A stretch of DNA of 64,000 nucleotides from assembly GCA_028688055.1 (NCBI GenBank), contig JAQTYZ010000002.1, positions 132,256 through 196,255 on the forward strand, given 5' to 3'. The notes below the pieces were generated by a model. That model was not told the origin of the DNA. It did no database searches and saw only the letters and a list, made by a program, of their open reading frames with translations. Shown in pieces: positions 29,241 to 53,244 of this stretch; the stretch's first letter is position 1; each line of letters begins with the position of its first letter. Made by a program: the position numbers and the translations under genes. The stretch is from Patescibacteria group bacterium (GTDB taxonomy: Bacteria > Patescibacteriota > Patescibacteriia > Buchananbacterales > UBA6539).

Positions 29241-29414
29241 TTATTCAGTGCTCTTGTCTTTTTTATCTTTTAGTTTTTTTATGCTGTTTTTTGATAGCGC
29301 TGCCCATACCAGAACGCCGATCGCAGTCTCAACCGATTCTTTTTCTTCGGCGTCTAGGGAGTGCTTTTTAAGCAGGCTTATTAAAATGGTAGCGGCTTTT
29401 TTATAATCCATCAT
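29241..29414 (-). CDS. Small hypothetical protein (57 aa, MMDYKKAATIL...)
   Basis: Read manually; below the ORF-track size cutoff; clean ATG to TAA frame. Confidence 0.6.
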   Translation of the reverse strand: MMDYKKAATILISLLKKHSLDAEEKESVETAIGVLVWAALSKNSIKKLKDKKDKSTE

Positions 29415-29426
29415 AGTTTAACCATA

Positions 29427-29454
29427 CCAAAAAATCGCCGGTCAGGCGATTTTT
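29427..29454 (-). terminator. Terminator similar to the one after tRNA-Val
   Basis: CCAAAAAATCGCCG..GGCGATTTT also occurs at ~1648-1675. Confidence 0.7.
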
Positions 29455-29534
29455 AGATAGGGGTCGGGGGAGGAGGCACATTAGCACTGAGCTTCATTAT
29501 CACTGAAAAAAGTATTTTGATTTTCAATCCTCGC

Positions 29535-30965
29535 CTAATCTTTTGGTTCAACATGAATCACCACTCTTTTTATTTCCGGCATCTTATTTTTTATCAGATA
29601 TTCAAACCGGCTAACTGCATTATGCACTTCCTCAATGGAAAGTTCTGCCGGCGCCAAGCAATGCAGGGAGATGAAAAACCGTTCGCCAATTTTTCTCACT
29701 AGCACATTGTGCAGATTGCTGATAATTTTTATTTGTTGATCGGTTTCAGTTATTAATGTCATCACTTTCGCCATCTCTTCGGCGGTGACATTTGAACTCA
29801 AAATGGCTTCTTTTTTTTGAGGTTCGATATGTGAATTTATTTCCACATCACTCCCAAATTCTTCTTTAATTGCCTTTTCCAGCTCGGTGGCAATTTCATG
29901 GGATTTTCTAAGGGTCAGGAAATCTTCCAACTCTAAGTCGAAACTGATATATTTTTTTTCGTCCAAATTATCAACAACGATATTGTGAAGCGTTAGGTTA
30001 CTTTTACCAGCCAAAGCCTGGATGGATTCCACAATCGTTTCATTATCCAGCTGAACTGAGCTGGTCCTGATTCCGATGTCTGCTTCGGGGACTTTTTCAA
30101 TTATCCTTTCCTTAATGCTTGTTTTTATTTCCTCCACTTTTGGCAAAGATAAAGTCCGGCTGATCTGAATAGCTACGTCAACAAAAACGTTTGGCCCAAG
30201 CGGTCTGACTCTAATATTTTCCACTGCTACCACTCCCTTGGTCGTTTTAACAATTGCTGCAACCACTTCGGTTATTCCTTGGGGAGCGGTATCGACCAAA
30301 ACATCAATGGTCCTTTTGCCCAAGCGCCAGCCGGCAACCGCTACGAAAATAGAAACACCAATCGCCGCTAAAGCATCTGCTCCCTGAACGCCAAACAAAA
30401 CTAAGATCAAACCAACCAGTACCACCGTCGAACTCCAGATATCGGAACTAAAATGTAAAGCGTCAGCTTCAAGCGCCTGGCTTTTAGTTTCTTGAGCAAC
30501 TTTAGTCAAAGCCCGGGAACGAGAAATATCAACCAGTATGGAAAAGATCACAACCGCAAAAGCGTACCAAGTAGCCTCCACTTCAATATTTTTGGTCATT
30601 AAACGGTGTGAAGCTTCATAGATTATCCAGCCGCTGGTAAGAAAAAGCAGGCCGGTCTCAATGAGGGCAGAAACGCTTTCAATTTTGCCGTGGCCATAAT
30701 GATGTTTTTCATCAGCCGGCTGGCCGCCAAAGCGGACGGCATAAAAAGTTAGTCCAGCTGCCCCTAAATCAAGCAAGGAATGGGCGGCTTCCGACATAAT
30801 ACCGATGCTACCGGTTAAAATGCCAACAACAAATTTAGTCCCAGTCAAAGCGGTGCCAGCCAGGATGGAACTCAAAGCGACCGCTTCCTTTTTATGATTT
30901 TGGTTGTGATTTTTTTTGGTTTCAGCAGTCGATTGTCCAGCTGTCATAGGGTTATTTTTGTTCAT
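29535..30965 (-). CDS. Cation diffusion facilitator (FieF-like) with repeated C-terminal domains
   Basis: HSLLD, HHYGHGKIE, HFSSD, repeated HIEP/HVEP. Confidence 0.93.
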   Translation of the reverse strand: MNKNNPMTAGQSTAETKKNHNQNHKKEAVALSSILAGTALTGTKFVVGILTGSIGIMSEAAHSLLDLGAAGLTFYAVRFGGQPADEKHHYGHGKIESVSALIETGLLFLTSGWIIYEASHRLMTKNIEVEATWYAFAVVIFSILVDISRSRALTKVAQETKSQALEADALHFSSDIWSSTVVLVGLILVLFGVQGADALAAIGVSIFVAVAGWRLGKRTIDVLVDTAPQGITEVVAAIVKTTKGVVAVENIRVRPLGPNVFVDVAIQISRTLSLPKVEEIKTSIKERIIEKVPEADIGIRTSSVQLDNETIVESIQALAGKSNLTLHNIVVDNLDEKKYISFDLELEDFLTLRKSHEIATELEKAIKEEFGSDVEINSHIEPQKKEAILSSNVTAEEMAKVMTLITETDQQIKIISNLHNVLVRKIGERFFISLHCLAPAELSIEEVHNAVSRFEYLIKNKMPEIKRVVIHVEPKD

Positions 30966-31114
30966 ATTAATATCCGGGAATATCTATAATTTTGGTACTT
31001 ATCTTTTTCCTCTGGTTTTGCTTTGATTAAAAATAGCTCTCCGCCTTGAAGATTATTATGTTTAGCATAAGTGATAGTGGTGATTTTGTTAAGGGGGTCA
31101 AATAAAATAATATC

Positions 31115-31189
31115 TATAACAAAAAACACCTCCCCGAAATAGGGGAGATGTCTTCTCCTGAAACTACGACCTTAATCGCAGGTTCAGGT
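31115..31189 (-). repeat. 75-bp hairpin+terminator repeat, copy C
   Basis: Identical to 32861-32935. Confidence 0.95.
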
Positions 31190-31445
31190 CGAGATGGGGA
31201 CGATGCTAGAATTAGATTATATAATGTCATTGAAGGATTAAAATTAATTTTTAGTGGTTTAAATAATTTTCATATTCCAAATTTTTTAGATAATGTAACA
31301 CCATGAAAGTCATTTTTAACGTCTATTGTTGACAATAATAAATTTTTATGTTAGTGTCGAACGTTAACTGATTGGCAGTTAACTCTCACATACGCGTGGG
31401 AATATCCAGCAGCTCGGATGAGCTCAAAGAACGGAGGTTCAGGAT

Positions 31446-31868
31446 ATGACTCTTCAAGGGATGAGGCGAATGTTGCGGGATTTTCCCTGGCTATGGGCTT
31501 TGGGAAGCTACTGGGACTGCAAAAAAGTGGAGATGACTGTTTTCTCTCACTGGGAGGATGTTCATCTACTGTTTCACAAAGCAGTCTTTGAGCTAACCAG
31601 GGGCGTTAAGGTGTTCATTCAGGTTACAACTTCTGACAGCGTTGAACGGTTAATCCCTGTAAAGGACGATGAACCGCCCCGCTGGCCTGAGTGTGAAGCC
31701 AGAAACTATCAGCGTGCAATACTAGACGCAGCACCTCAAGATTCCCAAATCAACTACTTGGTTATCGTTCGCACCTCACGTTATAAGGGGATTAGGAATT
31801 TCGAAATTTGGAGGCCGCCGTCTGGCTACCATTGTTTTCGAAAGTATGCCGAGAAAAATCCTTACTGA
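31446..31868 (+). CDS. Hypothetical protein (cassette cargo)
   Basis: GGAGG RBS; TTGACA at ~31329; hairpin after stop. Confidence 0.7.
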   Translation: MTLQGMRRMLRDFPWLWALGSYWDCKKVEMTVFSHWEDVHLLFHKAVFELTRGVKVFIQVTTSDSVERLIPVKDDEPPRWPECEARNYQRAILDAAPQDSQINYLVIVRTSRYKGIRNFEIWRPPSGYHCFRKYAEKNPY

Positions 31869-31911
31869 CCAACCGAGGTTTAGCCCACCTCCAAAAAACG
31901 GGCTTCTTTTT

Positions 31912-31986
31912 TATACAAAAAACACCCCCGACGAAATATCGGGGATGTCTTCTCCTGGAGCTATGATTTACGTCACAGGTCCAGGT
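31912..31986 (-). repeat. Diverged repeat copy B with compensatory stem changes
   Basis: Shares AAAAAACACC..GATGTCTTCTCCTG..CAGGT framework with copies A and C. Confidence 0.88.
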
Positions 31987-32009
31987 CAAGGAGGGGACGA
32001 CGTTAGAAC

Positions 32010-32849
32010 CTATTTATTTAAAGCTAGTAAAGAATTAAAAGTCTTTTTTACTTCTACTAATTCTGTTGCGACTGGAGAAAGATAAACTTCCATTATATTC
32101 CCATTAAAATTATTTATAACCTTTAAAAATTTTGAATAAAACTCCTTAAGTTCATAAGCTTTCCAGTTCAATACTAAAACGCCATTTTTTTTATTTTGCG
32201 TGGCATGTTGAATTTCTAATCCGATTTTTTTAACCCAATCCGTAGTAGTTCCCGCTGAGCCTAGAATTAGACCATTAACATTGTCTGAGCACATAATTTC
32301 CTTACTCCTTTCAGGAGATGAACTACCGCCATATATTATTCTTAATTTTTTTTCTGTATCATTACCATATTTCGTTTTTATCAAAGTCCTCAGGAATAGG
32401 CACATACTGTTTATTTGAGGAGCTTGTGGGGGAGCAACATTATTTTTTCCGCTACCGCGTGTGCCCCAACCCGGTTCGTATCCAAAGACTGTTTTTTTAG
32501 CAGTTTCTTTGTTTATGTTGTGTAGTACACATAAAAATTTATTTTTTAATTTGTTTTTCATTTTGTTTATTTCATTTGTGCTACTTTTACCCCAACCCTT
32601 TTTTAAGTCATCCCAATCTTCTCCAATTAAGACAACATTATCGGATAAACCGTATTTTAAAGCAGCTTGCCATTTTTCATTAACTATTTTTGGATCGTCT
32701 TTAAATTCAGAGTGACCAAGAATTATGCCGGTAGCCCCAGCTTTTTTTAAATGATAAAATCCTATATCTCCGGTTCTGGCAAATTGGTGCTTACCATCGC
32801 CTAAATATATATTTACGTTTTGAGCTATTAAAAATACATTTTGTTTCAT
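32010..32849 (-). CDS. Triosephosphate isomerase homolog, circularly permuted
   Basis: AQN, GHSE, YEP.W, YGGS motifs; NWK motif located near the C-terminus. Confidence 0.85.
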   Translation of the reverse strand: MKQNVFLIAQNVNIYLGDGKHQFARTGDIGFYHLKKAGATGIILGHSEFKDDPKIVNEKWQAALKYGLSDNVVLIGEDWDDLKKGWGKSSTNEINKMKNKLKNKFLCVLHNINKETAKKTVFGYEPGWGTRGSGKNNVAPPQAPQINSMCLFLRTLIKTKYGNDTEKKLRIIYGGSSSPERSKEIMCSDNVNGLILGSAGTTTDWVKKIGLEIQHATQNKKNGVLVLNWKAYELKEFYSKFLKVINNFNGNIMEVYLSPVATELVEVKKTFNSLLALNK

Positions 32850-32860
32850 ACTGTATTTAT

Positions 32861-32935
32861 TATAACAAAAAACACCTCCCCGAAATAGGGGAGATGTCTT
32901 CTCCTGAAACTACGACCTTAATCGCAGGTTCAGGT
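32861..32935 (-). repeat. 75-bp hairpin+terminator repeat, copy A, abutting the tRNA-His 3' end
   Basis: Identical to 31115-31189. Confidence 0.95.
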
Positions 32936-33005
32936 GGCCTACGGGAATCGAACCCGTAACGCGAGTACCACAAACTCGAGTGATAACCGTTTCACCAAGG
33001 CCACC
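32933..33005 (-). tRNA. tRNA-His(GTG)
   Basis: G-1 GTGGCCT...CGAGT-TTGTGGT-ACTCG...GTTCGATTCCC..AGGCCACC; CCA not encoded. Confidence 0.93.
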
Positions 33006-33011
33006 ATAAAG

Positions 33012-33479
33012 TTAAAATGTTTTGCCGTTATGTATTAAGTAATGACAGTTTCTGCATAACCACATTAAATTCGCAATCGTGTTATTTTTTCGATTGTGAT
33101 CAACGTGATGAATAACCAATACTTTTTTATTACTCATTCCGCATTCCTTACATTCGGCACTGATATTATGTTCTTTCATAATTCGGTGATATGAGAATTC
33201 ACCACCTTGCCAATTGGGATGATTTTTACCAGTATACTTTTTATTACGCCATAGTGTTTGGCATGATTTACCACAGAAGAAATAACCACTTTTTGATTTT
33301 TTTAAATCCTTGGGTGTTTTCCACGTTGGTTTTTCACAGGTATAGCATAATACAAACTTGCCTGTTTTTTGTGCTTGTCGGCTGCATCCCATTGAGCAGT
33401 ATTTGCCGAAACCGAGCTTGAGTTGACTCGGTTTTGTGTTGAACTCTTTTTTACATTCTTGGCATTCTCGTCTTACCAT
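33012..33479 (-). CDS. HNH endonuclease with N-terminal Zn fingers
   Basis: CxxC/YCS repeats; CKEC..HHVDHNRKNN..NL..LCRNCH. Confidence 0.9.
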   Translation of the reverse strand: MVRRECQECKKEFNTKPSQLKLGFGKYCSMGCSRQAQKTGKFVLCYTCEKPTWKTPKDLKKSKSGYFFCGKSCQTLWRNKKYTGKNHPNWQGGEFSYHRIMKEHNISAECKECGMSNKKVLVIHHVDHNRKNNTIANLMWLCRNCHYLIHNGKTF

Positions 33480-33965: not shown

Positions 33966-34886
33966 TCAACTATCTTTTCGTCTTTTTCGCTGATGAAATG
34001 TCTTATAAACTTCGCGCAACTGGTTATTAGTGATGTGAGTGTAAATCTGAGTGGTGGTAATCGACGAATGTCCCAGCATCGTTTGAACTGATCGAATATC
34101 AGCGCCATTAGTCAGTAAATCGGTCGCGAAACTATGGCGCATCGTGTGCGGCGTGACGTGCTTGGTGATGCCGGCGTCGCGCGAATATTTTTTAATCAAG
34201 CGCTGAACACTGCGCGGCGTTAAATTTTTTGGTTCGGTCTTGCCCTTCGCCTTATCGTGGCGAACCAAGAGGTAAGGGGAGAGGTCTTTGCGCCCAGTTA
34301 AATATTGTCTGAGCCAATGTTTGGTTTGGTTGGATAAAAAAACGACTCGTAATTTATCACCTTTGCCGCGAACCGTGAATTCGTCTTTGTCTAAATTAAC
34401 ATTTTCAATTTTGAGATTAGCTAATTCGGAAACCCGCAAGCCGGTTGAAAATAACATTTCCAAAATGGCTTTATCACGCAGCTGAATTATTTTTTTCTCC
34501 TCGGTTTTTAAGGGTGCCTCTAATAATCTTTCTAAATCATTCCCTTCTAAAAAATCAATTTGACGCTCTGGTATTTTTGCCAGTTCAATTTTTTCCGGGG
34601 CCAACGACTTTACATCTTGTTTGGACAAATATTTTAGTAGTGACCTAATCGCGATCAAGTGATAATTTTGCGTTGATTTTTTGAGGCCTCGTCCGTAGTT
34701 GTCGGTTTGGCGATTTAGCCATAGTCGATAGCTTCGAATCAGCTCAGCTGTGATTTGGGCCGGATTACTGACCTTACCCCAATTGCAAAAACGGTTGAGG
34801 TAATAATCGTAGTTTTCAACCGTTTTAATACTGCGTCCTTTTTCGACCTCGAGGTACTCAAGAAATTGTCTGATTAATTTATCCAT
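33966..34886 (-). CDS. XerC/XerD-family tyrosine recombinase
   Basis: TGLRVSEL, GKGDK, HTMRHSFAT, LGH..TTQIYT. Confidence 0.93.
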   Translation of the reverse strand: MDKLIRQFLEYLEVEKGRSIKTVENYDYYLNRFCNWGKVSNPAQITAELIRSYRLWLNRQTDNYGRGLKKSTQNYHLIAIRSLLKYLSKQDVKSLAPEKIELAKIPERQIDFLEGNDLERLLEAPLKTEEKKIIQLRDKAILEMLFSTGLRVSELANLKIENVNLDKDEFTVRGKGDKLRVVFLSNQTKHWLRQYLTGRKDLSPYLLVRHDKAKGKTEPKNLTPRSVQRLIKKYSRDAGITKHVTPHTMRHSFATDLLTNGADIRSVQTMLGHSSITTTQIYTHITNNQLREVYKTFHQRKRRKDS

Positions 34887-42350: not shown

Positions 42351-43217
42351 ATGTCTTCAAAAGTTTTAGCGGCGGCGGTCTTGGGCCTAGAGTGTGAATT
42401 AGTTACGGTTGAAGCGGACACCTCGCCGGCTTTGCCCGGAATATTTATCGTGGGCTTGCCGGATAAATCGGTCGACGAATCTAAAGAAAGAGTGCGCTCG
42501 GCAATTAAAAATTCCGGTTTAGCGATGCCGCGCACCAAGGTGACTGTTAATCTCGCTCCCGCTGATTTAAAAAAAGTTGGGCCAGCTTATGACTTGCCAA
42601 TCGCAATCAGTATTTTAGTAGCCAGCAGTCAGTTGTCGTTAAAAGATAAATGGTCGAAGCAACTTTTTATCGGTGAATTAGCGCTGGACGGCCAACTTCG
42701 TCCGGTGGCCGGCGTTTTATCAATTTGTCTTAAAGCCAAGGCGTTAGGAATAAATAAAGTAATTTTACCTTTGGCTAACGCCGCTGAAGCATCATTGGTT
42801 TCAGGGTTAGAAATAATTGCCTGTAAAAGTCTGGAGCAGCTTTCATTATATTTAAAATCGAAAATAGCCATTGAGCCATTTGAGCCACCGCCAACAATTT
42901 TTAATGCTGTTAATGAATTCGGGGGATTAGATATGGCTAATATTAAAGGTCAGCATCAGGCCAAACGAGCGTTGGAAATAGCGGCCGCCGGTGGGCATAA
43001 TATTTTATTTTATGGCCCGCCCGGCTCTGGTAAAACATTATTGGCCAAAACTGCGGTAACGATTTTGCCGTCAATGACTAAATCTGAAGCGCTTGATGTC
43101 ACTAGGATTTATAGCGTCGCTGGCTTACTGCCGCCCGGGCAACCGTTGATTAACCAGCGGCCATTTCGGGCACCGCATCATACTTCATCGGGCGTGGCGT
43201 GTATAATAGCAAGGTAG
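42351..43217 (+). pseudogene. comM: comM/yifB Mg-chelatase-like ATPase, 5' part, interrupted by the element
   Basis: VGLPD..ESKERV, GPPGSGKT, RAPHHTSS, then element-derived residues and a stop. Confidence 0.92.
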
Positions 43218-43342
43218 AGAGATTAGGGGTTAAGTTTGAGATTGTGAGAAATTTAACCTGAAATTTAAGGTATTCTAGTATTATGGACAGAGCTCTATTA
43301 AAGTAATAAGATTTAGGGTAGTAAAATATTTTGGAATAGTAT

Positions 43343-44404
43343 ATGGGAAAAATGTTTTTAGCTTTTGCAGACTGCTCTTCTTCTAACAAAAATGTTATCA
43401 AAAAGATTGGAAACATTGAATTTTTTAATTTAGCAAAGATTAATCAGAATGATTTTTTGAGGTTAATGAATAGTAAATTTAAGTTTCCGAACAAAAAGTT
43501 GATAAAAAACTTTCCCAATTCACCTGACTATAAATTATTCACCGATTTATACAAATGTAGTGCCTGGGGCATGATGGTACCCCACAATCATAGGGAAAGT
43601 TTTGGATCAATATATATTCCAAGAATGATAACCCATCTTTATACGGCCAAACCTTTGATATGCACTTTTTCTGTGACTGTTGCCGGACCATGGATTATGA
43701 CTAGAAAACTTGCTATAGATCAGAGAGCTCAGTTTCATTCTGAAGACAAGTCTTTGATGTCTAAAAGGTTTTTAAAGTTTTATAAAGAAATTTATCCGGT
43801 GATCCAAGGAACCAACTGGAACGCCGATGAAGTTACTCAATGGGATAATGAGCGTTGGAGGGTTCACTTGGCACTAGTTTTTTTTGATCAATTATTCGAA
43901 TACTATAACAAGAAGCCAGTAACAACTTGGCCGAAAGAATGCTCAGAAATTGTCACACTAATTGAAACTATTTTCTCAGTGCATAAAAGTGATTATGGTC
44001 AAACACTAATGATGCAAAGAGTAGAGGTGTTGTTGGGTGATTTTTATGGCAAAGCCTTTAAGGATGTAAAACAAGATCTAAAAGATCTTTTTGATTACAG
44101 AAACAAATTTATTCATGGTAAATACTTTTTGACATTAAAGAAAAAAGTAACTACTTATCCAGATAATAGTAATATGGCACAGTTGCCCTCTGTTGACATG
44201 AGGTTGCTTTTTTCTCTAGAACTTATCGTTAGGGATTTAATGGTGGCATACTTGTATTTGTTAAAATATTTTCATCATAAGTCAAACAGAGGTAATATTA
44301 TGCTATCTAGAGTTATTTTGGAAGCCGTTATGGACATTCAGTTACGAGAAAAAATTCAATTCCGAGTAAATAGAATCCTTAGGCTAACTCATAGGGAGAG
44401 GTGA
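43343..44404 (+). CDS. HEPN-domain protein (ApeA-like), putative defence
   Basis: LIETIF..LFDYRNKFIHG (RxxxxH). Confidence 0.7.
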   Translation: MGKMFLAFADCSSSNKNVIKKIGNIEFFNLAKINQNDFLRLMNSKFKFPNKKLIKNFPNSPDYKLFTDLYKCSAWGMMVPHNHRESFGSIYIPRMITHLYTAKPLICTFSVTVAGPWIMTRKLAIDQRAQFHSEDKSLMSKRFLKFYKEIYPVIQGTNWNADEVTQWDNERWRVHLALVFFDQLFEYYNKKPVTTWPKECSEIVTLIETIFSVHKSDYGQTLMMQRVEVLLGDFYGKAFKDVKQDLKDLFDYRNKFIHGKYFLTLKKKVTTYPDNSNMAQLPSVDMRLLFSLELIVRDLMVAYLYLLKYFHHKSNRGNIMLSRVILEAVMDIQLREKIQFRVNRILRLTHRER

Positions 44405-44585
44405 AGAGATCTGGTTTGACTTATTGAGGTTAATGAACTATTTTTAACCTACCAACATAGCACGATAAAGCAGAATCAACATAGCGTCCCCGTAAGGGGG
44501 TTTTTGATTTGTCTAATTTTGGTATTATGGACACAGATTTGTTGGTGTATTAAGATTTATAATAATTGAAATAATCAAATAAGTT

Positions 44586-45113
44586 ATGCATGATTCAGAA
44601 AAATTTAAAGAAGCCATGAAAAGTATGCCTGATAATAGCATTGATGATTTTACTAAAAATATTGTAAAATTTTTATTAAAATTTAATGATGAGCAGATTA
44701 ATACAGTATCATTCGTGTTTTGGTTAGTTTATGTCGCAGAACTTAAATTAGACGAATTTAGAATACACGCATGGGAAGTAGCAGAAAAGGATTCTTCTGA
44801 AGATATAATTGATAGAGCTAAGCAGATGCTTACTGATAAAATTAATTTAGATAGGTCAGTTATCAATAACCCTAGATATTTTTCTGAAAAAATAAAATTT
44901 TTTGAAGGTGTTATAGGAAAAAATGATTTTGTTGAGATTTTATATATTTTAAGAGATTTGAGAAATGATATAAGTCATTTACGTATAGATAATTTAAAAT
45001 ATAAAGAATTATCTCTCTACACAAGAGAAGCAAAGGAAAATCTTATAATTGATTTTGTTGAGTCGGCAAGGAATTGCAATGCATCTAAATCTGATTTTAG
45101 GCAGTTTATCTGA
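44586..45113 (+). CDS. Small HEPN-like protein
   Basis: FSEKI..LRNDISH (RxxxxH). Confidence 0.6.
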   Translation: MHDSEKFKEAMKSMPDNSIDDFTKNIVKFLLKFNDEQINTVSFVFWLVYVAELKLDEFRIHAWEVAEKDSSEDIIDRAKQMLTDKINLDRSVINNPRYFSEKIKFFEGVIGKNDFVEILYILRDLRNDISHLRIDNLKYKELSLYTREAKENLIIDFVESARNCNASKSDFRQFI

Positions 45114-45188
45114 GTTTTTAATCCTTCTTGTTTAAACTTAAGGTGGCAGATGGTTGGGTCGTCATTATACATGAATATTTAATTTAAT

Positions 45189-46328
45189 ATGGAAAATTTT
45201 CAAAGTCTTTATGATCCAATTGATAAGTGTATAGAAGAAGGTGTTATTAATTCCAAGTTTCTCGAGATACTTGCAAAGACAAATCCTCTTAGCACTTGGC
45301 ATAATGAATTTTTAGAATTAGATAAAGTATATAAGTGGCCAAGTCTTAAACAAACACATTATCAAATCGACATAGAAGTTGATAGCCCGACCATTATCTT
45401 AAATGGGGAAATAAAAGATTATAAAAATATTATCTATACTAAAAAAACTAAGGTAATAAGAAAGGGGAGAGGCAAAGACTCGGAAGAAAGTTTAGAATCA
45501 TATTTAAACGAAAAGCTAGGAACAATATCATCGTTTTTGATGTTAAGTAAAAAACATTCAGATGATTATATTAAGTTAGGTTCAGAAAAATTAAGTCAGT
45601 TATTGAGCAGTGAGGGTTCGTGGGAGATTAAAGATAAAGATATTTCTATTAGTGGAAACTTAAATATTTTTGAGAGTGATGAATTGTTAGACCAGTTAAC
45701 TATTTCATTTTTATTAAAATCTGCGAGAGAAGGTAAAGGTAGACTACTACAAGATGCTGCAGCTTTGATTTTAATAGCTTTACTATATAAAAGATTGAAC
45801 TATCAGGTAGAAAGTATTTTTAAAGATATTAAAAATATTGACTGTAGTGAGACTCTTGATGATGCAATACATTTTGCAATCAAAATTATTAAGGACGATG
45901 AAACGGTGCCAGAAAGGTTTAGATTCAAGTCTGGCAACAGCAGTTCATTAAGATTTTTTTTAGTAGGGACAAGTTACTCAGAAGCTGGGGAAAACGTCTT
46001 TATACCAAAAATAAGAGAATATTTTCGGGATAAACGACTAAAATATGATAAGGTTTCAAAAGAGGATTATTTTAGTGAACTATCTACCGAAAAAGATGAA
46101 GAAGAAATAGAGTTTGATGTAAAAGATGAAAAAAATAACTTAAAGTTAAACGAGGGGTTACTGGCAAGTATTGATGGGGTAATCAATAATTTATCCGAGA
46201 GAGATCAAGCCATCTGGCGTATGTTTTTGGACGGACGTACCGGTGACGAAATAGGTGAAAGATTTGGCTTAGGTAAGGCAAGGATTTCTCAGATATTAGC
46301 TGAAATTAGAAAAAAAATTATGGATTAA
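45189..46328 (+). CDS. Protein with C-terminal sigma70 region-4-like HTH
   Basis: LSERDQAI..GRTGDEIGERFGLGKARISQI. Confidence 0.7.
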   Translation: MENFQSLYDPIDKCIEEGVINSKFLEILAKTNPLSTWHNEFLELDKVYKWPSLKQTHYQIDIEVDSPTIILNGEIKDYKNIIYTKKTKVIRKGRGKDSEESLESYLNEKLGTISSFLMLSKKHSDDYIKLGSEKLSQLLSSEGSWEIKDKDISISGNLNIFESDELLDQLTISFLLKSAREGKGRLLQDAAALILIALLYKRLNYQVESIFKDIKNIDCSETLDDAIHFAIKIIKDDETVPERFRFKSGNSSSLRFFLVGTSYSEAGENVFIPKIREYFRDKRLKYDKVSKEDYFSELSTEKDEEEIEFDVKDEKNNLKLNEGLLASIDGVINNLSERDQAIWRMFLDGRTGDEIGERFGLGKARISQILAEIRKKIMD

Positions 46329-46395
46329 ACTTTTCCGGTTTTTAATCCATATATATAAGTAACACTATTTAAAGTGTTATTTTTTTATATCCCAA

Positions 46396-46551
46396 ATGAC
46401 TCCAAACTTTGAGATCATCCATGAAAAGCTTGATATATCACCTCAGGAGGCCGAGCGCCGCTTATTTTCAGCGTTATCTCAATTAATTTCATACGGAGAT
46501 TTATATGTCGAAGAAAATGAACAGAAAAATCACAATCAATCCGCTGTTTAA
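46396..46551 (+). CDS. Small hypothetical protein (51 aa)
   Basis: Read manually: MTPNFEIIHEKLDISPQEAERRLFSAL... Confidence 0.45.
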   Translation: MTPNFEIIHEKLDISPQEAERRLFSALSQLISYGDLYVEENEQKNHNQSAV

Positions 46552-46765
46552 AACGAAGGATTCGTACCTAGCGAGTGTAATTTATTATTTTGGTTTTAAA
46601 TTGGACTCTACGGAATGGCAGGGAGACTCCTTATTTTTTGTATTCGAAAATGCAGAGGAAGCAGAAAAAATTGTTAAGCAATACTATGCAGGGGAACTTA
46701 AAGTCGATCCTAGAATTTTATTTGATTCCTATAAGATAATAAAGCAGATAATCTTTAGCAGATGA
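46505..46765 (+). CDS. DUF5659-like small protein
   Basis: TKDSYLAS..FFVF..YYAGELKVDP. Confidence 0.65.
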   Translation: MSKKMNRKITINPLFKTKDSYLASVIYYFGFKLDSTEWQGDSLFFVFENAEEAEKIVKQYYAGELKVDPRILFDSYKIIKQIIFSR

Positions 46766-46974
46766 TGGAATTTAAATTTACAACTGAAAATTATGAGTTG
46801 CTCAGATTTTTGCATAAAGAGCTAATAAAGAATTTAGATGAAACTAATGAACTAGAGTTTGTCCTGATGGAAAAGAAAAGAGATTTTTATAGACTAAGTA
46901 AAAAAATTAACGAACTAACTAACAAAATTAAATTAAATGAAAATGAAGATTCAAAGCCCAAAGCCAAAAGTTAA
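46762..46974 (+). CDS. Hypothetical coiled-coil protein
   Basis: Overlapping, translationally coupled ORF. Confidence 0.55.
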   Translation: MMEFKFTTENYELLRFLHKELIKNLDETNELEFVLMEKKRDFYRLSKKINELTNKIKLNENEDSKPKAKS

Positions 46975-48328
46975 AGAAGTATTTATCAGTTCCTTGGTAA
47001 ACCCTAAAGATGCCAGTCTAGTTGAAATGGTTTATTCAGAAGATCAAAACTCCACTCGTTTTATTCAGTACTTTAACGGAGAAATTGATACTAGGGATTA
47101 TATCGAAAAAGAGGATGGTAGAGTTAAGCTATTACCATTTCCACCCAATAATGACTTGGTTAAAAATAAGGTTATCCTATTCCCTAGCTATCCAGCCGAG
47201 TATGGCAATGATAGACAGTTGTTAAATAACATTTCTAACTTTATTCATAAATACTTAGACGTAAGTCCATTTTTTGAAAAAATATCGTCTTACTATGTTT
47301 TGTTTACATGGGTTTATGATTGTTTTAATGAACTACCTTACCTCCGAGCGCTAGGTGATTATGGAACAGGCAAATCAAGACTTTTAAAAGTTGTTGGTTC
47401 AATTTGTTATAAACCAATGTTTACTGCTGGGGCAACTACTGTTTCTCCAGTTTTTAGAATTATTGATAGCTTTAGAGGCACATTAATTTTAGATGAAGCA
47501 GATTTGAAGTTTAGTGATACTACTATGGAAATAATTAAAATATTAAACTCTGGTTATGCAAGTGGAACTCCAGTATTACGAAGTGTAACCGATGGTAAAA
47601 ATGGCTTTGATGTTAAGAGCTTTAATGTTTACTGCCCTAAGATTATAGGGACTAGGGGTAGATTTCAGGATAAAGCTCTAGAGAGCCGTTTTCTAGTTGA
47701 GGTAATGGATAAAAATAAGTTAAGAGATGACATCCCGATCAACCTGCCTGAGAGTTTTGAAAAAGGAGCGCTTGATCTAAGAAACCAATTGCTAATGTGG
47801 CGCTTTAAGAACCATGGCTCTAAGAAGATTAAGCATGAGTTGGTTGATAAAAGTATAGAGCCTCGTTTAAACCAAATCATTGTACCTCTGGCTAGTGTTA
47901 TTGAGCACTCTGAGCTTATCAAGGAGTTGCAGGACTTTATTAGAGAGTACAATAGGCAATTAACCTCAGATCGGGGAATGACATGGGAGGCTGGTATTCT
48001 AGAGGCAATTATAGAGCTTAAAAAGGAGTTGATATTAAGCCCAACTGTTAAAGAAATCACTGAAAGGCATAACGCCACCGTTGAAGAAAAAGAAAAAATA
48101 ACAAATAGGAAAACGGGTTACATCATTCGGGAGAAGCTTGGGTTCATAACGGTGAAAACTCGTGATGGTTATATTGTTGAGGGTAATGAGAAGAATAACA
48201 CAAGATTTTTTCACCTAGTTACTAAATATGGTTTAGATGAATTGTTAGAGGGTGAGAAGCGTGAACATGTGAATGATGTGAACGTTGCTACAGGGGTAGA
48301 TAAGGATGATTTACCTAAATTCAGCTAA
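46937..48328 (+). CDS. P-loop replication protein (primase-associated helicase-like)
   Basis: GDYGTGKS Walker A, ILDEAD Walker B, ILNSGY, ALESR. Confidence 0.8.
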   Translation: MKMKIQSPKPKVKEVFISSLVNPKDASLVEMVYSEDQNSTRFIQYFNGEIDTRDYIEKEDGRVKLLPFPPNNDLVKNKVILFPSYPAEYGNDRQLLNNISNFIHKYLDVSPFFEKISSYYVLFTWVYDCFNELPYLRALGDYGTGKSRLLKVVGSICYKPMFTAGATTVSPVFRIIDSFRGTLILDEADLKFSDTTMEIIKILNSGYASGTPVLRSVTDGKNGFDVKSFNVYCPKIIGTRGRFQDKALESRFLVEVMDKNKLRDDIPINLPESFEKGALDLRNQLLMWRFKNHGSKKIKHELVDKSIEPRLNQIIVPLASVIEHSELIKELQDFIREYNRQLTSDRGMTWEAGILEAIIELKKELILSPTVKEITERHNATVEEKEKITNRKTGYIIREKLGFITVKTRDGYIVEGNEKNNTRFFHLVTKYGLDELLEGEKREHVNDVNVATGVDKDDLPKFS

Positions 48329-48392
48329 ACTCAAATAAGCCAAATTCTATTTATTAACCCCTAATTAAAGTTCACAACGTTCACACGTTCAC
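48261..48392. repeat. Inverted iteron triplets, putative element origin
   Basis: GTGAAC/GTGAAT x3 (48261-48283) facing GTTCAC x3 (48370-48392). Confidence 0.7.
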
Positions 48393-48399
48393 AAAGTAT

Positions 48400-49059
48400 A
48401 TGGAGAAACCTAAAAAAATAAACAATCAATTGTCTATTAGTCAAAAAAAAGAGCTTGAAGAATGGGAAAAAAAGATAGACAGTGGAGAAGCTTATAAAAT
48501 TGCAGAAAATGAATTAATGAATAACGTTAGTAGCAATTATGATTTTCAACAGGGTATAAGGAAATTTGCAGAGGTCATTTTTCCTAAGTTGGCAATTAAA
48601 AGAGAAAAACTAACCAAAGAAGAACAGGAAGAGTTCAGAAATATTAGTTTATGTTGTGGCTTAGATAACGGGTTTGGGATAATGGGGGCTGTGGAAGTTG
48701 ATAATCGTGGTTTAATTCAAACCCTACGGAAAAAGTTGATAAAGGAATTTGATTGCAAATCGTATAGCGAGAAAGCATTGGTTGACTTGGCAGTTAATGC
48801 ATATTCAAGAAATCTAACATTCAGCACAAGTTTAATTACTTCCAACAAAATGGGGTACACTACTCAGCTACTAAATAATTATTTAAGTATTGCAAGCAAA
48901 GAGATAGATCGAGCAAATAGACAATTTATTACTGCCCTAGAAACATTGAGACAACTAAAACAGCCGGAGTTAAAGGTTAATGTTAAAACAAAAAATGCTT
49001 TTATTGCTCAAAATCAACAGTTTAACAATAATCAGAATGAAACCAACAACTCCAAATAA
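48400..49059 (+). CDS. Hypothetical element protein
   Basis: 219-aa ORF in the element operon. Confidence 0.75.
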   Translation: MEKPKKINNQLSISQKKELEEWEKKIDSGEAYKIAENELMNNVSSNYDFQQGIRKFAEVIFPKLAIKREKLTKEEQEEFRNISLCCGLDNGFGIMGAVEVDNRGLIQTLRKKLIKEFDCKSYSEKALVDLAVNAYSRNLTFSTSLITSNKMGYTTQLLNNYLSIASKEIDRANRQFITALETLRQLKQPELKVNVKTKNAFIAQNQQFNNNQNETNNSK

Positions 49060-49369
49060 TTTAGGAAAAAAGTATTTAGTTGATCAGTGTAAGTCAATTG
49101 ATATTTCTGATTATTTGGGTAAGGTTAAAAATGAACTTAAACAATTGGCCATTAAGTCTCAGGCAGAGGTAGATGGTTATGAGGTGGAATTAACCACTAG
49201 TAAAATTCATTACCTGGGGCTCAGATACTGGTTTAAATGCCCTCTATGTAGCAGAAGGGCAGGCAAGCTATATAAGCACCCTATAAGCCATATTTTGGGT
49301 TGTAGACGCTGTTTAAATCTTGAATATAGGTCTAGAAGGTACAAGGGAATGGTGGAAAGCTGTAATTGA
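49037..49369 (+). CDS. Zn-finger protein
   Basis: WFKCPLC..GCRRCLNLEY; ATG at 49037. Confidence 0.75.
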   Translation: MKPTTPNNLGKKYLVDQCKSIDISDYLGKVKNELKQLAIKSQAEVDGYEVELTTSKIHYLGLRYWFKCPLCSRRAGKLYKHPISHILGCRRCLNLEYRSRRYKGMVESCN

Positions 49370-49436
49370 CATAATATGACAAAATGATACAATAGTTATA
49401 AGTAGATTCTAAAAATATTTATGTATTTATGTATTT

Positions 49437-50144
49437 ATGAATAAAAGTATAGGTATTATTTTAATTTTGTTAGCTGGTTTAATTCTGCTGGGGTTAGCTA
49501 GTGGTTGGAGTTTTTTTACCTGGAGATTTATGGATTACATAATAATAGCCGCTAATGTTGTGATTGGAGTAATGCTAATTAATGTTAACGATTTCAATGA
49601 TTTGAATATTAAATCTATTTTTAAAAGTAGAAAATTTAAATTTATTGTTGTAGCTTTAATTTTTATAGCAATTATTTTTTTCGTTACCATATTATCAATA
49701 GTAAAAATCAATGAAGAAAATTTAAAATGTAAATTTAATATCAGTGACGTAGTTGAGAATAGATTTCAAGAAGATAAAGATGCATATTCTGAAAAATGTG
49801 TTGGATATCAACCTCTATTTGCCACGATAGTTTGTAAAGATGGGTTTAAAAATTACCCTGCCAAACATTTAACTTATTGGGAGATCAATGGGTTATTAAA
49901 AAATAATTCTAAATATAGCCAGTATCTCAAGAGTATTGTTTTGAAAATATATACCAATGACGAAAGAAAAATTTTATTAGCAGAAAATTTTTTAGATATT
50001 AATGAATCATTAACATCAGATCAATCTTATCCTTTTCAGGTAAGAGCACAAATTAATAGAGATTCTCAAATTGGAAAATATTTTAATAAGGACGATAAAG
50101 TAAAGGTAGATATATATCCATATTTTGCGAGTTGTACATATTAA
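49437..50144 (+). CDS. Membrane protein
   Basis: Three hydrophobic segments then a soluble domain. Confidence 0.7.
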   Translation: MNKSIGIILILLAGLILLGLASGWSFFTWRFMDYIIIAANVVIGVMLINVNDFNDLNIKSIFKSRKFKFIVVALIFIAIIFFVTILSIVKINEENLKCKFNISDVVENRFQEDKDAYSEKCVGYQPLFATIVCKDGFKNYPAKHLTYWEINGLLKNNSKYSQYLKSIVLKIYTNDERKILLAENFLDINESLTSDQSYPFQVRAQINRDSQIGKYFNKDDKVKVDIYPYFASCTY

Positions 50145-50146
50145 AT

Positions 50147-50491
50147 ATGAAAAATCAAGAACTATACACTACTCAAGAGGTTGCCGATATTGTTAAAGTT
50201 CATCAGAGAACTGTGTTCCGATACATTAAAAATGGCAAGCTAAAGGCCATTAAGATGTTTGGTCAATGGAGAGTAAAAAAAGATGATTTGGATAAGCTTG
50301 CAGGTGAAAAAAATTTTTTACCCAAAAAAGGAAGTAGGATTAGGCCTAGGGAATTTATGGATATTATGGCAAGGATAGAATTAATAGATAAAGAAATTAA
50401 GAAAGAAGAGAAGCTTTATACAGTTAAACTAAATTCTCTAGAATTGGAAAAGGAATATCTCTTGAATAAAATGCAGTCGAGGAAAAAGTAG
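50147..50491 (+). CDS. Excisionase-like HTH_17 protein
   Basis: YTTQEVA..RTVFRYIKNGKLKA..WRV. Confidence 0.85.
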   Translation: MKNQELYTTQEVADIVKVHQRTVFRYIKNGKLKAIKMFGQWRVKKDDLDKLAGEKNFLPKKGSRIRPREFMDIMARIELIDKEIKKEEKLYTVKLNSLELEKEYLLNKMQSRKK

Positions 50492-50612
50492 TAAAGAGGA
50501 TCATTTTTTTGGAACCATTTAATCTTGCAAACTTAAAGCCACTAAAACTAGTCAGTGGCGGATAACCAGAAAGGATCTAGATAGTTTTGTCAATAAGTTT
50601 AAAAATAAGTGA

Positions 50613-50967
50613 TATGGAAAAAAAGAATGAATTTGATATTACTTTAACAGAGGCAAGAAATATAATGGCAGACTTTGGTAAATGTATACAGGATCATCCT
50701 GGGGGTGGCTATCAGAATCTTTTACCGCATAGTACGGATTCAATTCTCATTGCCGCATTAAAAATTATTTTAAGTGATGAAACCGACAAAGTCTATAAAG
50801 AAATTGCATCTCTGTCGTTAGTATATCTAAAAGACTTTATCCCAGACGAGAAGGAGTATAAGAAGATGGTTTTTCTAAAAGAGTCAAAAGATATTTTAAT
50901 GGATGAATCAATATCCCTAGAAGAGAGAGCTGCTAAAATGAGCAGGATAAGGAAAAAATATTTATGA
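50613..50967 (+). CDS. Hypothetical protein
   Basis: Overlaps the integrase start (ATGA); start taken at MEKK. Confidence 0.6.
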
Positions 50968-52595
50968 AAAAAGCGGTTTATTATGCTCGTGTAAGTACTA
51001 GCCTGCAGGAAGAGAAAGGTACAATTGAAAGCCAAAAATTTGAACTTCTTAATCAGATTAAAAAAGATGGGAGTATTTTAGTTAAAGAATATATTGATAA
51101 TGGTTGGTCTGGAGGAAGATTAGATCGTCCAGCTTTAGATGAATTAAGAAATGATATTAAAACCGATCTATTTGATGTGGTTTATTTTTTAGATGCCGAC
51201 AGAATCGCTAGAGATGTAAGCTACCAAAATATAATTATTTCAGAATTATTAAAGTATAACAAAGATATAATTATCAAAGGTAAGAGCTATATTCACAATC
51301 CAGAGAATAAATTTTCACTAACTGTCCTCGGAGCTGTTAACGAGTTGGAGAAAGCAAAAATAGTTGAGAGGATGATGAGGGGTAGGAGAGAGAAAGCTAG
51401 AAGGGGAGCAATTGTTGATTCAGGCGGACTATTTGGCTATGACCATGTCAAAAAAACAGATCAAAAAGATGGGTATTATAAAATCAATGAAAAACAAGCA
51501 GAGGTTGTTAAATTTATTTATGAGACATACGCCTATGAAGATGTTAGCATTACGGGACTCATTAAAATTTTAGAAAACAAAGGCATCCAAACGGCCAGAG
51601 GTAGTAGTGTTTGGAAAGGTAGTGTTATTAGACGGATTCTGACAAATGAAAGTTATTATGGGCATCATCATTTTAATCGAACAGAAAAAGTGGAATCAGG
51701 AATAGAAAAGGAAAGGTATGCGAAGAACGCCAAAACTCTTTCAAGACTGAGGGATAAATCTGAGTGGATTTTGGTTCCAATCCCTCCCATAATTAATCAG
51801 GAGCTTTTTGATATAGTTCAGGGTAAGTTGAAAAGGAACTATAAACTCCTAAGAAATACGAACAACAAGTATCTTCTAGGGGGCGTTATAAAGTGTGGCG
51901 TTTGTGACCATACTTACTCGGGGGTTAGTTGGAAGGGAGATCAATACTATAAATGTAATTATAGAGACAAGACATACAATCATAGTAAGTTGGTTGATAT
52001 TGAAAAATGTGATAATCAGGCAATTAAGGGTGAGATGATAGACGGCTTAGTATTGGAAGAACTAAAAGAAAAAATACTAAAACCGTCTATTATTAAGAAG
52101 CATATAGACATTTTGCAAAGCTCTAAAAGCGAAGGCGCTAAGTCTTTAAACAAAGCATTTGATAAAGCAGACGCAAAACTTAAAAGTTTAGAAGTTAAAA
52201 AACAGAGGTTGTTAGATTTGTATGCTGATAATTTATTAAGCAAAGAGGACTATATAAGCAAGATTGAAGAAATTGATTTAAGCTGCAAAGAGCTTGAAGA
52301 AGAAAAAGATGATTCGACCAAAAGACTTTCCTTGTTAGATAAGAGAAAAGATATTAGAGTTAATATTAATCATTTTTGTAGACTAGCTAGGAGAAGATTT
52401 GATAAATTAGACAGAAAAGAACAAATTCGGTTCATAAAAAATATTATTGATGAAGTTATCATTTTCAAAAATGATTCTGCAAAAAAGCTAATTATTAGAG
52501 GGATTCTACCCGTATTAGCTGAGAACAATAGTCTGTCACCTCAGTATTATACAGGCTATGGGGGTGGCGTTGGTTGGCGGCGGCACTTGGCCTAA
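50964..52595 (+). CDS. Large serine recombinase
   Basis: YARVST, DNGWSG, RPAL, DRIAR, Zn ribbon KCGVC, coiled coil; reads through attR. Confidence 0.96.
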   Translation: MKKAVYYARVSTSLQEEKGTIESQKFELLNQIKKDGSILVKEYIDNGWSGGRLDRPALDELRNDIKTDLFDVVYFLDADRIARDVSYQNIIISELLKYNKDIIIKGKSYIHNPENKFSLTVLGAVNELEKAKIVERMMRGRREKARRGAIVDSGGLFGYDHVKKTDQKDGYYKINEKQAEVVKFIYETYAYEDVSITGLIKILENKGIQTARGSSVWKGSVIRRILTNESYYGHHHFNRTEKVESGIEKERYAKNAKTLSRLRDKSEWILVPIPPIINQELFDIVQGKLKRNYKLLRNTNNKYLLGGVIKCGVCDHTYSGVSWKGDQYYKCNYRDKTYNHSKLVDIEKCDNQAIKGEMIDGLVLEELKEKILKPSIIKKHIDILQSSKSEGAKSLNKAFDKADAKLKSLEVKKQRLLDLYADNLLSKEDYISKIEEIDLSCKELEEEKDDSTKRLSLLDKRKDIRVNINHFCRLARRRFDKLDRKEQIRFIKNIIDEVIIFKNDSAKKLIIRGILPVLAENNSLSPQYYTGYGGGVGWRRHLA

Positions 52596-53244
52596 ACCGG
52601 GAGAAATTTCTTTGGCCCACCGCGGGATCTTGTTTCTCGATGAATTTCCAGAATTTCCTAGGTCCGTGCTGGAAAATCTGCGTCAACCGCTCGAGGATGG
52701 AGTAATTAATGTCTCTCGGGCCACTGGTACGTTACAATTTCCGGCCAAGTTTGTTTTAATTGGTGCGATGAATCCTTGCCCCTGTGGTTATTTAACTGAT
52801 ACGGAAAGACAATGCGTCTGTTTACCTGGGCAGATCATCAAGTACCAAAAGAAAATATCCGGCCCGCTGCTGGACCGTATCGATTTGCACGTCGAAGTGC
52901 CCAAGGTCAATTTTGATAAATTGACCGAAGAAACGTTAGCGGAAGATTCAGTTAGTATTCGCCAGCGGGTTGAGGCTGCTCGGCAGTTACAGATTGAACG
53001 GTTTAAGTGTATTGGCGTTGTCGCTAATGCTGAACTGTCTTCAAAACAGACCAGTGAATTTTGCCAAATTGATGACAAATCGCTGCAGCTTTTAAAGCGA
53101 GCGGTCAGCCACTTTGGCTTGTCGGCTCGCTCCTATTTTCGAATTTTTAAATTAGCTAGAACCATCGCTGACTTGGGGGCCAAGGAAAGTATTGAGTTTG
53201 ATCACGTGGCCGAGGCGTTACAATATCGTCCTAAGGCTGATTAG
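52558..53244 (+). pseudogene. comM: comM/yifB 3' part
   Basis: VALVGGG..PGEISLAHRGILFLDE, MNPCPCG, SGPLLDRID. Confidence 0.92.

Follow-up and report, generated by a model that had tools for sequence, protein, structure and literature searches.

Within a 64,000-nucleotide window of a Patescibacteria group bacterium genome (contig JAQTYZ010000002.1, positions 132,256 to 196,255), a tRNA-His(GTG) gene on the minus strand (32933-33005) is followed at its 3' end by a tandem array of three small gene units. The gene lacks an encoded CCA and ends in the trinucleotide ACC (32933-32935, tRNA positions 71-73), and the same triplet recurs as a junction at 31984-31986, 31187-31189 and 29462-29464, delimiting units A, B and C of 949, 797 and 1725 bp, each with one gene. 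These four junctions and three single-gene units had been described in an earlier note made from the letters alone, and they are present in the sequence. Every unit opens with a head on the minus strand. Head A (32861-32935) consists of a hairpin (32903-32934), a terminator and then TGTTATAAT, an extended -10-like sequence ahead of the start of the first gene. Head B, taken with its junction J1 (31911-31986), has a hairpin and a terminator as well, and head C with junction J2 (31115-31189) is identical to head A at 75 of 75 positions. Head B is 78% identical to these over 81 nucleotides, and its stem is preserved through compensatory changes (GAA/TTC to GGA/TCC, and TGCGA/TCGTA to TGTGA/TCATA), just as the note had described.

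The other ends of the units, which we call tails, also lie on the minus strand, at 31987-32050 (A), 31190-31306 (B) and 29465-29489 (C). When the 32,140 ACC sites of the genome are scored with a matrix derived from 22 tails found elsewhere, in other genomes, the three rank 1, 2 and 12, the last being tail C, which is degenerate yet real, as had been suspected. The third-ranked site lies inside an ordinary coding gene and was set aside as a chance match. The proposed TCCC-N7-ACC spacing of the tails holds, but the spacer originally given as six nucleotides is five (N5). Past the last tail come ACC, CCT and a terminator (29427-29464), where relatives usually have ACC, CCA and a terminator; this agrees with the idea that displaced native sequence follows the last junction, which would then be an attR site. 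The terminator matches the one behind tRNA-Val at 27 of 30 positions, but the genome has comparable terminators at other places as well, so that this likeness is generic and not specific to tRNA-Val.

Repeats of this kind could reflect an assembly artefact or a dispersed terminator, an explanation to which we give next to no weight. The 75-bp head repeat, which matches no Rfam family above the gathering score, occurs three times in the 1.10-Mb assembly, always within the tRNA-His array, and other genomes have arrays at the same tRNA, so the repeat is not dispersed. In the probable source run the repeat forms a single unitig with a depth of 15.5, about twice that of the array-side flanks (8 and 9.4); the tRNA-side flank has 13.3. 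Junction J2, between B and C, is crossed with one difference by a 187-bp contig that comes from a separate study. What speaks for such an explanation is that the unitigs do not order the A+B loop, and that the terminator half of the head, taken alone, resembles sequences behind tRNA-His at sites without a detected junction.

Cargo A (32010-32849, minus strand, 279 amino acids) is a circularly permuted triosephosphate isomerase (TIM) homologue in which residues 53-237 of the Pfam TIM family come first and residues 6-53 align weakly at the C-terminus (conditional E-value 0.016). It retains the NWK, GHSE and YEP motifs; a canonical TIM is also encoded in the genome, and homologues in the permuted order at 40% identity were found in 2 of 350 genomes of the class. 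Cargo B (31446-31868) lies on the plus strand, opposite to cargo A and C, and encodes a 140-amino-acid protein with no Pfam family and no Atlas match; it is 93% identical to the last gene of a recombinase-bearing element at tRNA-His in a relative, G003. Cargo C (29535-30965, minus strand, 476 amino acids) is a cation diffusion facilitator (CDF) transporter. Directly past the last junction lies a 57-amino-acid open reading frame (ORF; 29241-29414) with no Pfam family, which could represent an older cassette; four other genomes encode homologues of it close to tRNA-His arrays.

We compared the locus with 40 relatives by BLAST and ran a covariance model of the head over the order (31 genomes), a class sample (150) and a phylum sample (150). 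In four relatives (G003, G004, G012 and G013) tRNA-His adjoins a reverse-strand gene for a large serine recombinase (LSR) of 540-555 amino acids with Resolvase, Recombinase and zinc ribbon domains, the frame of which crosses the tRNA end. All four of these intact elements end in the tail of the window's units. Over 734 bp, positions 73-800 of unit B share 87.5% identity with the right end of the element in G003, which has no head between the LSR gene and this unit-B-like end, and the head of the same element contains, inside the LSR coding sequence, a match to the terminator of the window's heads. Relatives of the LSR are encoded in 48 of 301 class genomes (E<=1e-90) and adjoin tRNA-His, Glu, Gln, Met, Leu, Asn, Ser, Trp and Gly. 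Left junctions were located at 22 of 26 such loci and right junctions at 9 of those 22, and every located right end keeps the 71-73 triplet of its own tRNA. When the LSR frame is followed into the tail, 24-42 codons stay open in all nine cases, each with a DDVRT-like motif, and the six tail readings from other families have a YIP-like motif. Because the LSR gene reads across the junction, the tails are, judging by these frames, also its cut-off 3' end. In the window, the plus strand of tail A reads as a relic of an LSR C-terminus (DDVRT), and that of tail B is open for 38 codons and ends in an FHIP motif like those of LSR C-termini. In a quick version of the LSR tree the tRNA-His elements, to which two rows labelled Arg also belong, are spread over several branches. 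Neither the LSR nor cargo B has relatives in viral contigs.

Tails and tRNA differ by a fixed step in the position of a shared motif. In a search that did not impose an offset, GTTC lies 18 nucleotides before the core in all four tRNA-adjacent heads, including that of the window, and 23 nucleotides before it in 12 of 23 internal heads (six lack the motif and five have other offsets, mostly at sites broken by short palindromic inserts). Of 21 candidate LSR-element right ends, 12 have the 23-nucleotide offset, as does tail A. For phage serine integrases, PMC3783163 assigns the outer (ZD) motif to positions 16-24 of attP and, 5 bp nearer the centre, to positions 11-19 of attB; the 18- and 23-nucleotide offsets fit this difference. 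With the centre at 71-72, attB positions 11-19 would correspond to G53-C61, the tRNA T-loop; the stretch from the T-loop to position 73 would then be the left half of attB, and the ACC at the tRNA end the crossover region of attL. The same geometry is seen at tRNA-Met and tRNA-Asn in relatives, with the tail keeping the 71-73 triplet of that tRNA. Tail-motif bases show conservation even where they occupy third codon positions (24/25, 23/25 and 25/25), and they are retained despite in-frame stops, which argues for constraint on the DNA rather than on coding. The exchange must lie within 71-73, since the tail no longer matches the tRNA at position 70 and divergence of the hairpin heads sets in at 74; the core measures 3 nucleotides in the window and 5-6 in intact elements. 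Intact LSR elements have a further direct copy of the motif about 62 nucleotides after position 73, inside the LSR coding sequence (22/22 at one spacing in one scan, 27/35 first matches in another), and its glutamate codons in LSR heads L171-L251 are exclusively GAA, compared with 66% GAA in these genes overall. The window's cassettes lack this copy.

A different enzyme lies closer at hand. A gene for a Xer-like tyrosine recombinase (33966-34886), the only tyrosine recombinase of the genome, is situated 960 bp upstream of the array and precedes tRNA-Arg/His in 13 of 17 loci of relatives; a three-nucleotide core with a hairpin recalls attC recombination, and the enzyme might act on the folded hairpin as an integron-type integrase. 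We regard this as very unlikely. The gene is present with and without arrays, its product scores above the XerA cut-off and reaches 138 bits against an integron-integrase (TIGR02249) cut-off of 265, LSR-bearing elements at tRNA-Met and tRNA-Asn share the tail geometry, and such an enzyme would leave the 5-nucleotide offset and the LSR coding relic unexplained. Between tRNA-Arg and tRNA-His there is also an ORF with an HNH domain (33012-33479), which ends six nucleotides before tRNA-His.

Heads were scanned in 35 sources chosen from the BLAST, covariance-model and LSR matches, and 27 hairpin heads (23 distinct) were found in 11 genomes, comprising 8 of the 31 genomes of the order and three elsewhere in the class. 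In the phylum sample one of 150 other genomes gave a match at E<=1e-5, to a degenerate head. The tRNA-His arrays of relatives vary in the number, cargo and orientation of their units, many of which are under 1 kb and some 4-6 kb long, and the same 126-amino-acid cargo follows one head type in G010 and another in G013. Several relatives have a tRNA-His locus with CCA and a terminator and no detected junction. Serial, site-specific capture at the tRNA-His 3' end, by cassettes without a recombinase of their own, had been anticipated in the earlier note and is supported. A loose pattern scan of contigs gave 120 single matches in unrelated taxa, which we took as chance and did not use.

Several arrays of relatives have features of their own. 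One hairpin-headed unit of 6.1 kb in G005 (L031:7297-13414) contains a reverse transcriptase and two adjacent ORFs that are 84% identical, and in sequence it resembles a diversity-generating retroelement. In the same genome, a fragment like the tRNA-His 3' end, with no tRNA gene, lies at the end of a guaB-like gene (L208:1960-1995) and is a landing site for a second LSR clade and for cassettes. G021 has more than one tRNA-Arg/tRNA-His copy with cassettes behind each (L209, L035), and one of its contigs starts and finishes in the same tRNA-Arg sequence. Short GC-rich palindromic inserts recur in junction tails, tRNA copies and terminators (L033, L034, L035, L036, L047, L209).

The hairpin sets the recombinase-less units apart from the intact elements. 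Across heads, 91% of cells are paired, with 41 two-sided changes, compared with 0 of 500 shuffles and 32-54% in slid controls, under a control that ignores the relatedness of the sequences. In the outer stem G-T outnumbers A-C by 10 to 1, which favours a role on the tRNA-sense strand, and when head and tRNA are folded together, C72-C73 stay in the predicted acceptor stem, which is directly followed by the hairpin. We lean slightly towards an element of the tRNA-precursor RNA; a signal for transfer or recombination of single-stranded DNA seems rather less probable, and a double-stranded palindromic site would be the least expected of the three. A T-loop-like motif was rejected as the hairpin's role: GTTCG is present in the right arm in 9 of 23 heads and absent from those of the window.

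The units could instead be a stack of relics, full LSR islands that lost their recombinase in place, or that move only together with an adjacent intact island (cis-mobilisation, or accretion), in which case no cassette would be mobile by itself. The right end of the intact G003 element, to which unit B corresponds, points in this direction, as do a truncated LSR gene that follows an array in G005, the many junctions broken by short palindromic inserts and the lack of circles among the contig joints listed; such loss or cis-mobilisation is proposed in PMC3146451 for 15 ssrA islands without an integration module. It is the heads that such a history accommodates poorly. No LSR gene lies within the next 2 kb of any hairpin head (0/27), and the hairpin, which breaks the LSR frame, is kept by two-sided changes across families. 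Similar head types recur across families, and hairpin heads join tails of two LSR clades that are 26% identical; independent deletions would not be expected to converge on such heads. Many units are, moreover, below 1 kb. On balance we think a stack of relics unlikely, though it is the most serious of the alternatives.

We therefore favour, with somewhat more confidence than doubt, the reading that the units are recombinase-less derivatives of LSR elements at tRNA 3' ends, inserted serially by an LSR from outside the array. The shared ends, the overlap of the LSR gene with the site, the offset and the core can be read directly from the aligned sequences; catalysis by an LSR, circular forms, reuse of tRNA plus head as a target and the action of a helper in trans would complete the scheme. 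The enzyme would read the T-loop (GTTCRA) and T-stem as an attB half-site and the tail, with its motif 5 nucleotides further out, as an attP half-site, and would exchange strands within positions 71-73 (at AC or CC). Loosely specified right-hand arms would leave tRNA plus head usable again, so that new units would be pushed in at the tRNA end, and excision would release units from that end, either the first by itself or the first n together, and not an internal one on its own. Each cassette would have both LSR-derived ends around one gene. The head terminator may insulate it from tRNA read-through, and forward-oriented cassette genes are often preceded by a -10-like sequence. The weakest step is that the added hairpin would act on the tRNA-sense strand, as tRNA-precursor RNA or, less likely, as single-stranded DNA. 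More tentatively, and at somewhat less than an even chance, the hairpin heads may mark a distinct class of mini-cassettes, self-insulated and passed from one species to another, which helper LSRs from two distant clades would insert into the reusable tRNA-end site and excise from it, with the T-loop as the attB motif.

Several results weigh against capture by an external LSR. No circle junction, which the earlier note would have led one to expect, was seen among the contig joints listed, and a strict search found right ends for only nine of 22 LSR elements. A profile of eight C-terminal peptides placed tail A first of 30,653 peptides, but with an E-value of only 0.77, and missed tails B and C. 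The homologues that relatives have of cargo A (two loci) and cargo C (six loci) occupy ordinary loci, with no head or tail beside them, so that these two have not been seen as cassettes elsewhere. Inspection of the right-hand arms of the heads by eye revealed no inverted (mirror) motif at a fixed distance, and the sites are thus not canonical phage att sites. The neglect of relatedness in the covariation control belongs here too, as does the window's assembly, which is 97.7% complete and encodes no LSR of the tRNA-His clade.

The LSR genes that this assembly does have are one at tRNA-Asn (38% identity), one that splits comM (22%) and the 5' part of a further one that runs off its contig (G000 C5:1-441). 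The second belongs to an element of about 9 kb within the window (43217-52595), with its own 543-amino-acid LSR (50964-52595), that divides a comM-type Mg-chelatase gene into 42351-43217 and 52558-53244; its identity of 22% and its other target make it an unlikely helper. At G000 C6:98557-109420 a tRNA-Asn-like copy is followed by an apparently intron-split tRNA-Asn, a 429-amino-acid LSR and an island with ORFs that look, by sequence, like restriction-modification and reverse-transcriptase genes.

Tandem stacks built by LSRs at the 3' end of one gene, with recombinase-less members, are known from composite islands of the staphylococcal cassette chromosome (SCC) and from ccr-less pseudo-SCC elements. 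The target here is a tRNA and not rlmH, SCC units are far larger, and the LSRs of this family score 73-84 bits against Ccr models with a cut-off of 900. As in integrons, small, variable cassettes without a recombinase would be fed into an array at one site; unlike integrons, there is no IntI at the array, and cassettes stand in either orientation and keep their own promoter-like and terminator sequences. The hairpin, moreover, is proximal and its stem ends in CC/GG, whereas attC sites have AAC/GTT ends and are distal. The term integron-like, used in the earlier note, is thus apt as an analogy only.

In the arrays of relatives, though not in that of the window, intact elements have an LSR gene that adjoins attL and extends over the site at its 3' end, and the recombinase-less units share their ends with these elements, as in stacks of the ssrA and SCC type. 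The phage serine integrases of LI and A118 (PMC3783163) have the same domain set and an outer motif that is likewise shifted by 5 bp from attP to attB; they differ from the present sites, where the motif is in the left arms only and the product site seems reusable. The closest described system is that of the Dehalococcoides ssrA islands (PMC3146451), a tandem stack behind a tRNA-like gene in which the LSR gene DsiB overlaps attL and is perhaps complete only on the circle; 15 of these islands lack an integration module, and a circular intermediate is presumed. Common to both are a reverse-strand LSR of about 540 amino acids at attL, with its 3' end overlapping the site, and members without the module. 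The ssrA islands use the ssrA T-loop and have a 20-bp repeat from it, whereas the target here is tRNA-His (at least nine kinds of tRNA in the LSR family) with a core of 3-6 nucleotides at the acceptor end, and the tRNA-His units are 0.45-2 kb long, mostly of one gene, with a dedicated hairpin head. The six-gene ssrA module was not apparent in the ORF maps here, in which no scan was aimed at it. A literature search, with subscription papers and supplements outside its reach, found no description of this tRNA-His system. The arrays are best placed as a system of the same kind as the ssrA islands, differing in target, core, unit size and hairpin head.

If our reading is correct, ultra-small, gene-poor bacteria would have a defined slot at which to sample single genes, among them genes for metal export, metabolic enzymes and, in one relative, a reverse-transcriptase module. 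Were the arrays a serine-recombinase analogue of integrons, the hairpin would serve specifically to signal that a unit is non-autonomous. The site model, with the T-loop as outer motif, a 5-nucleotide offset and crossover at 71-73, is testable, and a reusable product site would be unusual for the serine integrase class. A family of LSRs at no fewer than nine kinds of tRNA, with one site geometry, would offer a natural series for studying how serine integrases change target, and a set of candidate integrases for tRNA ends.

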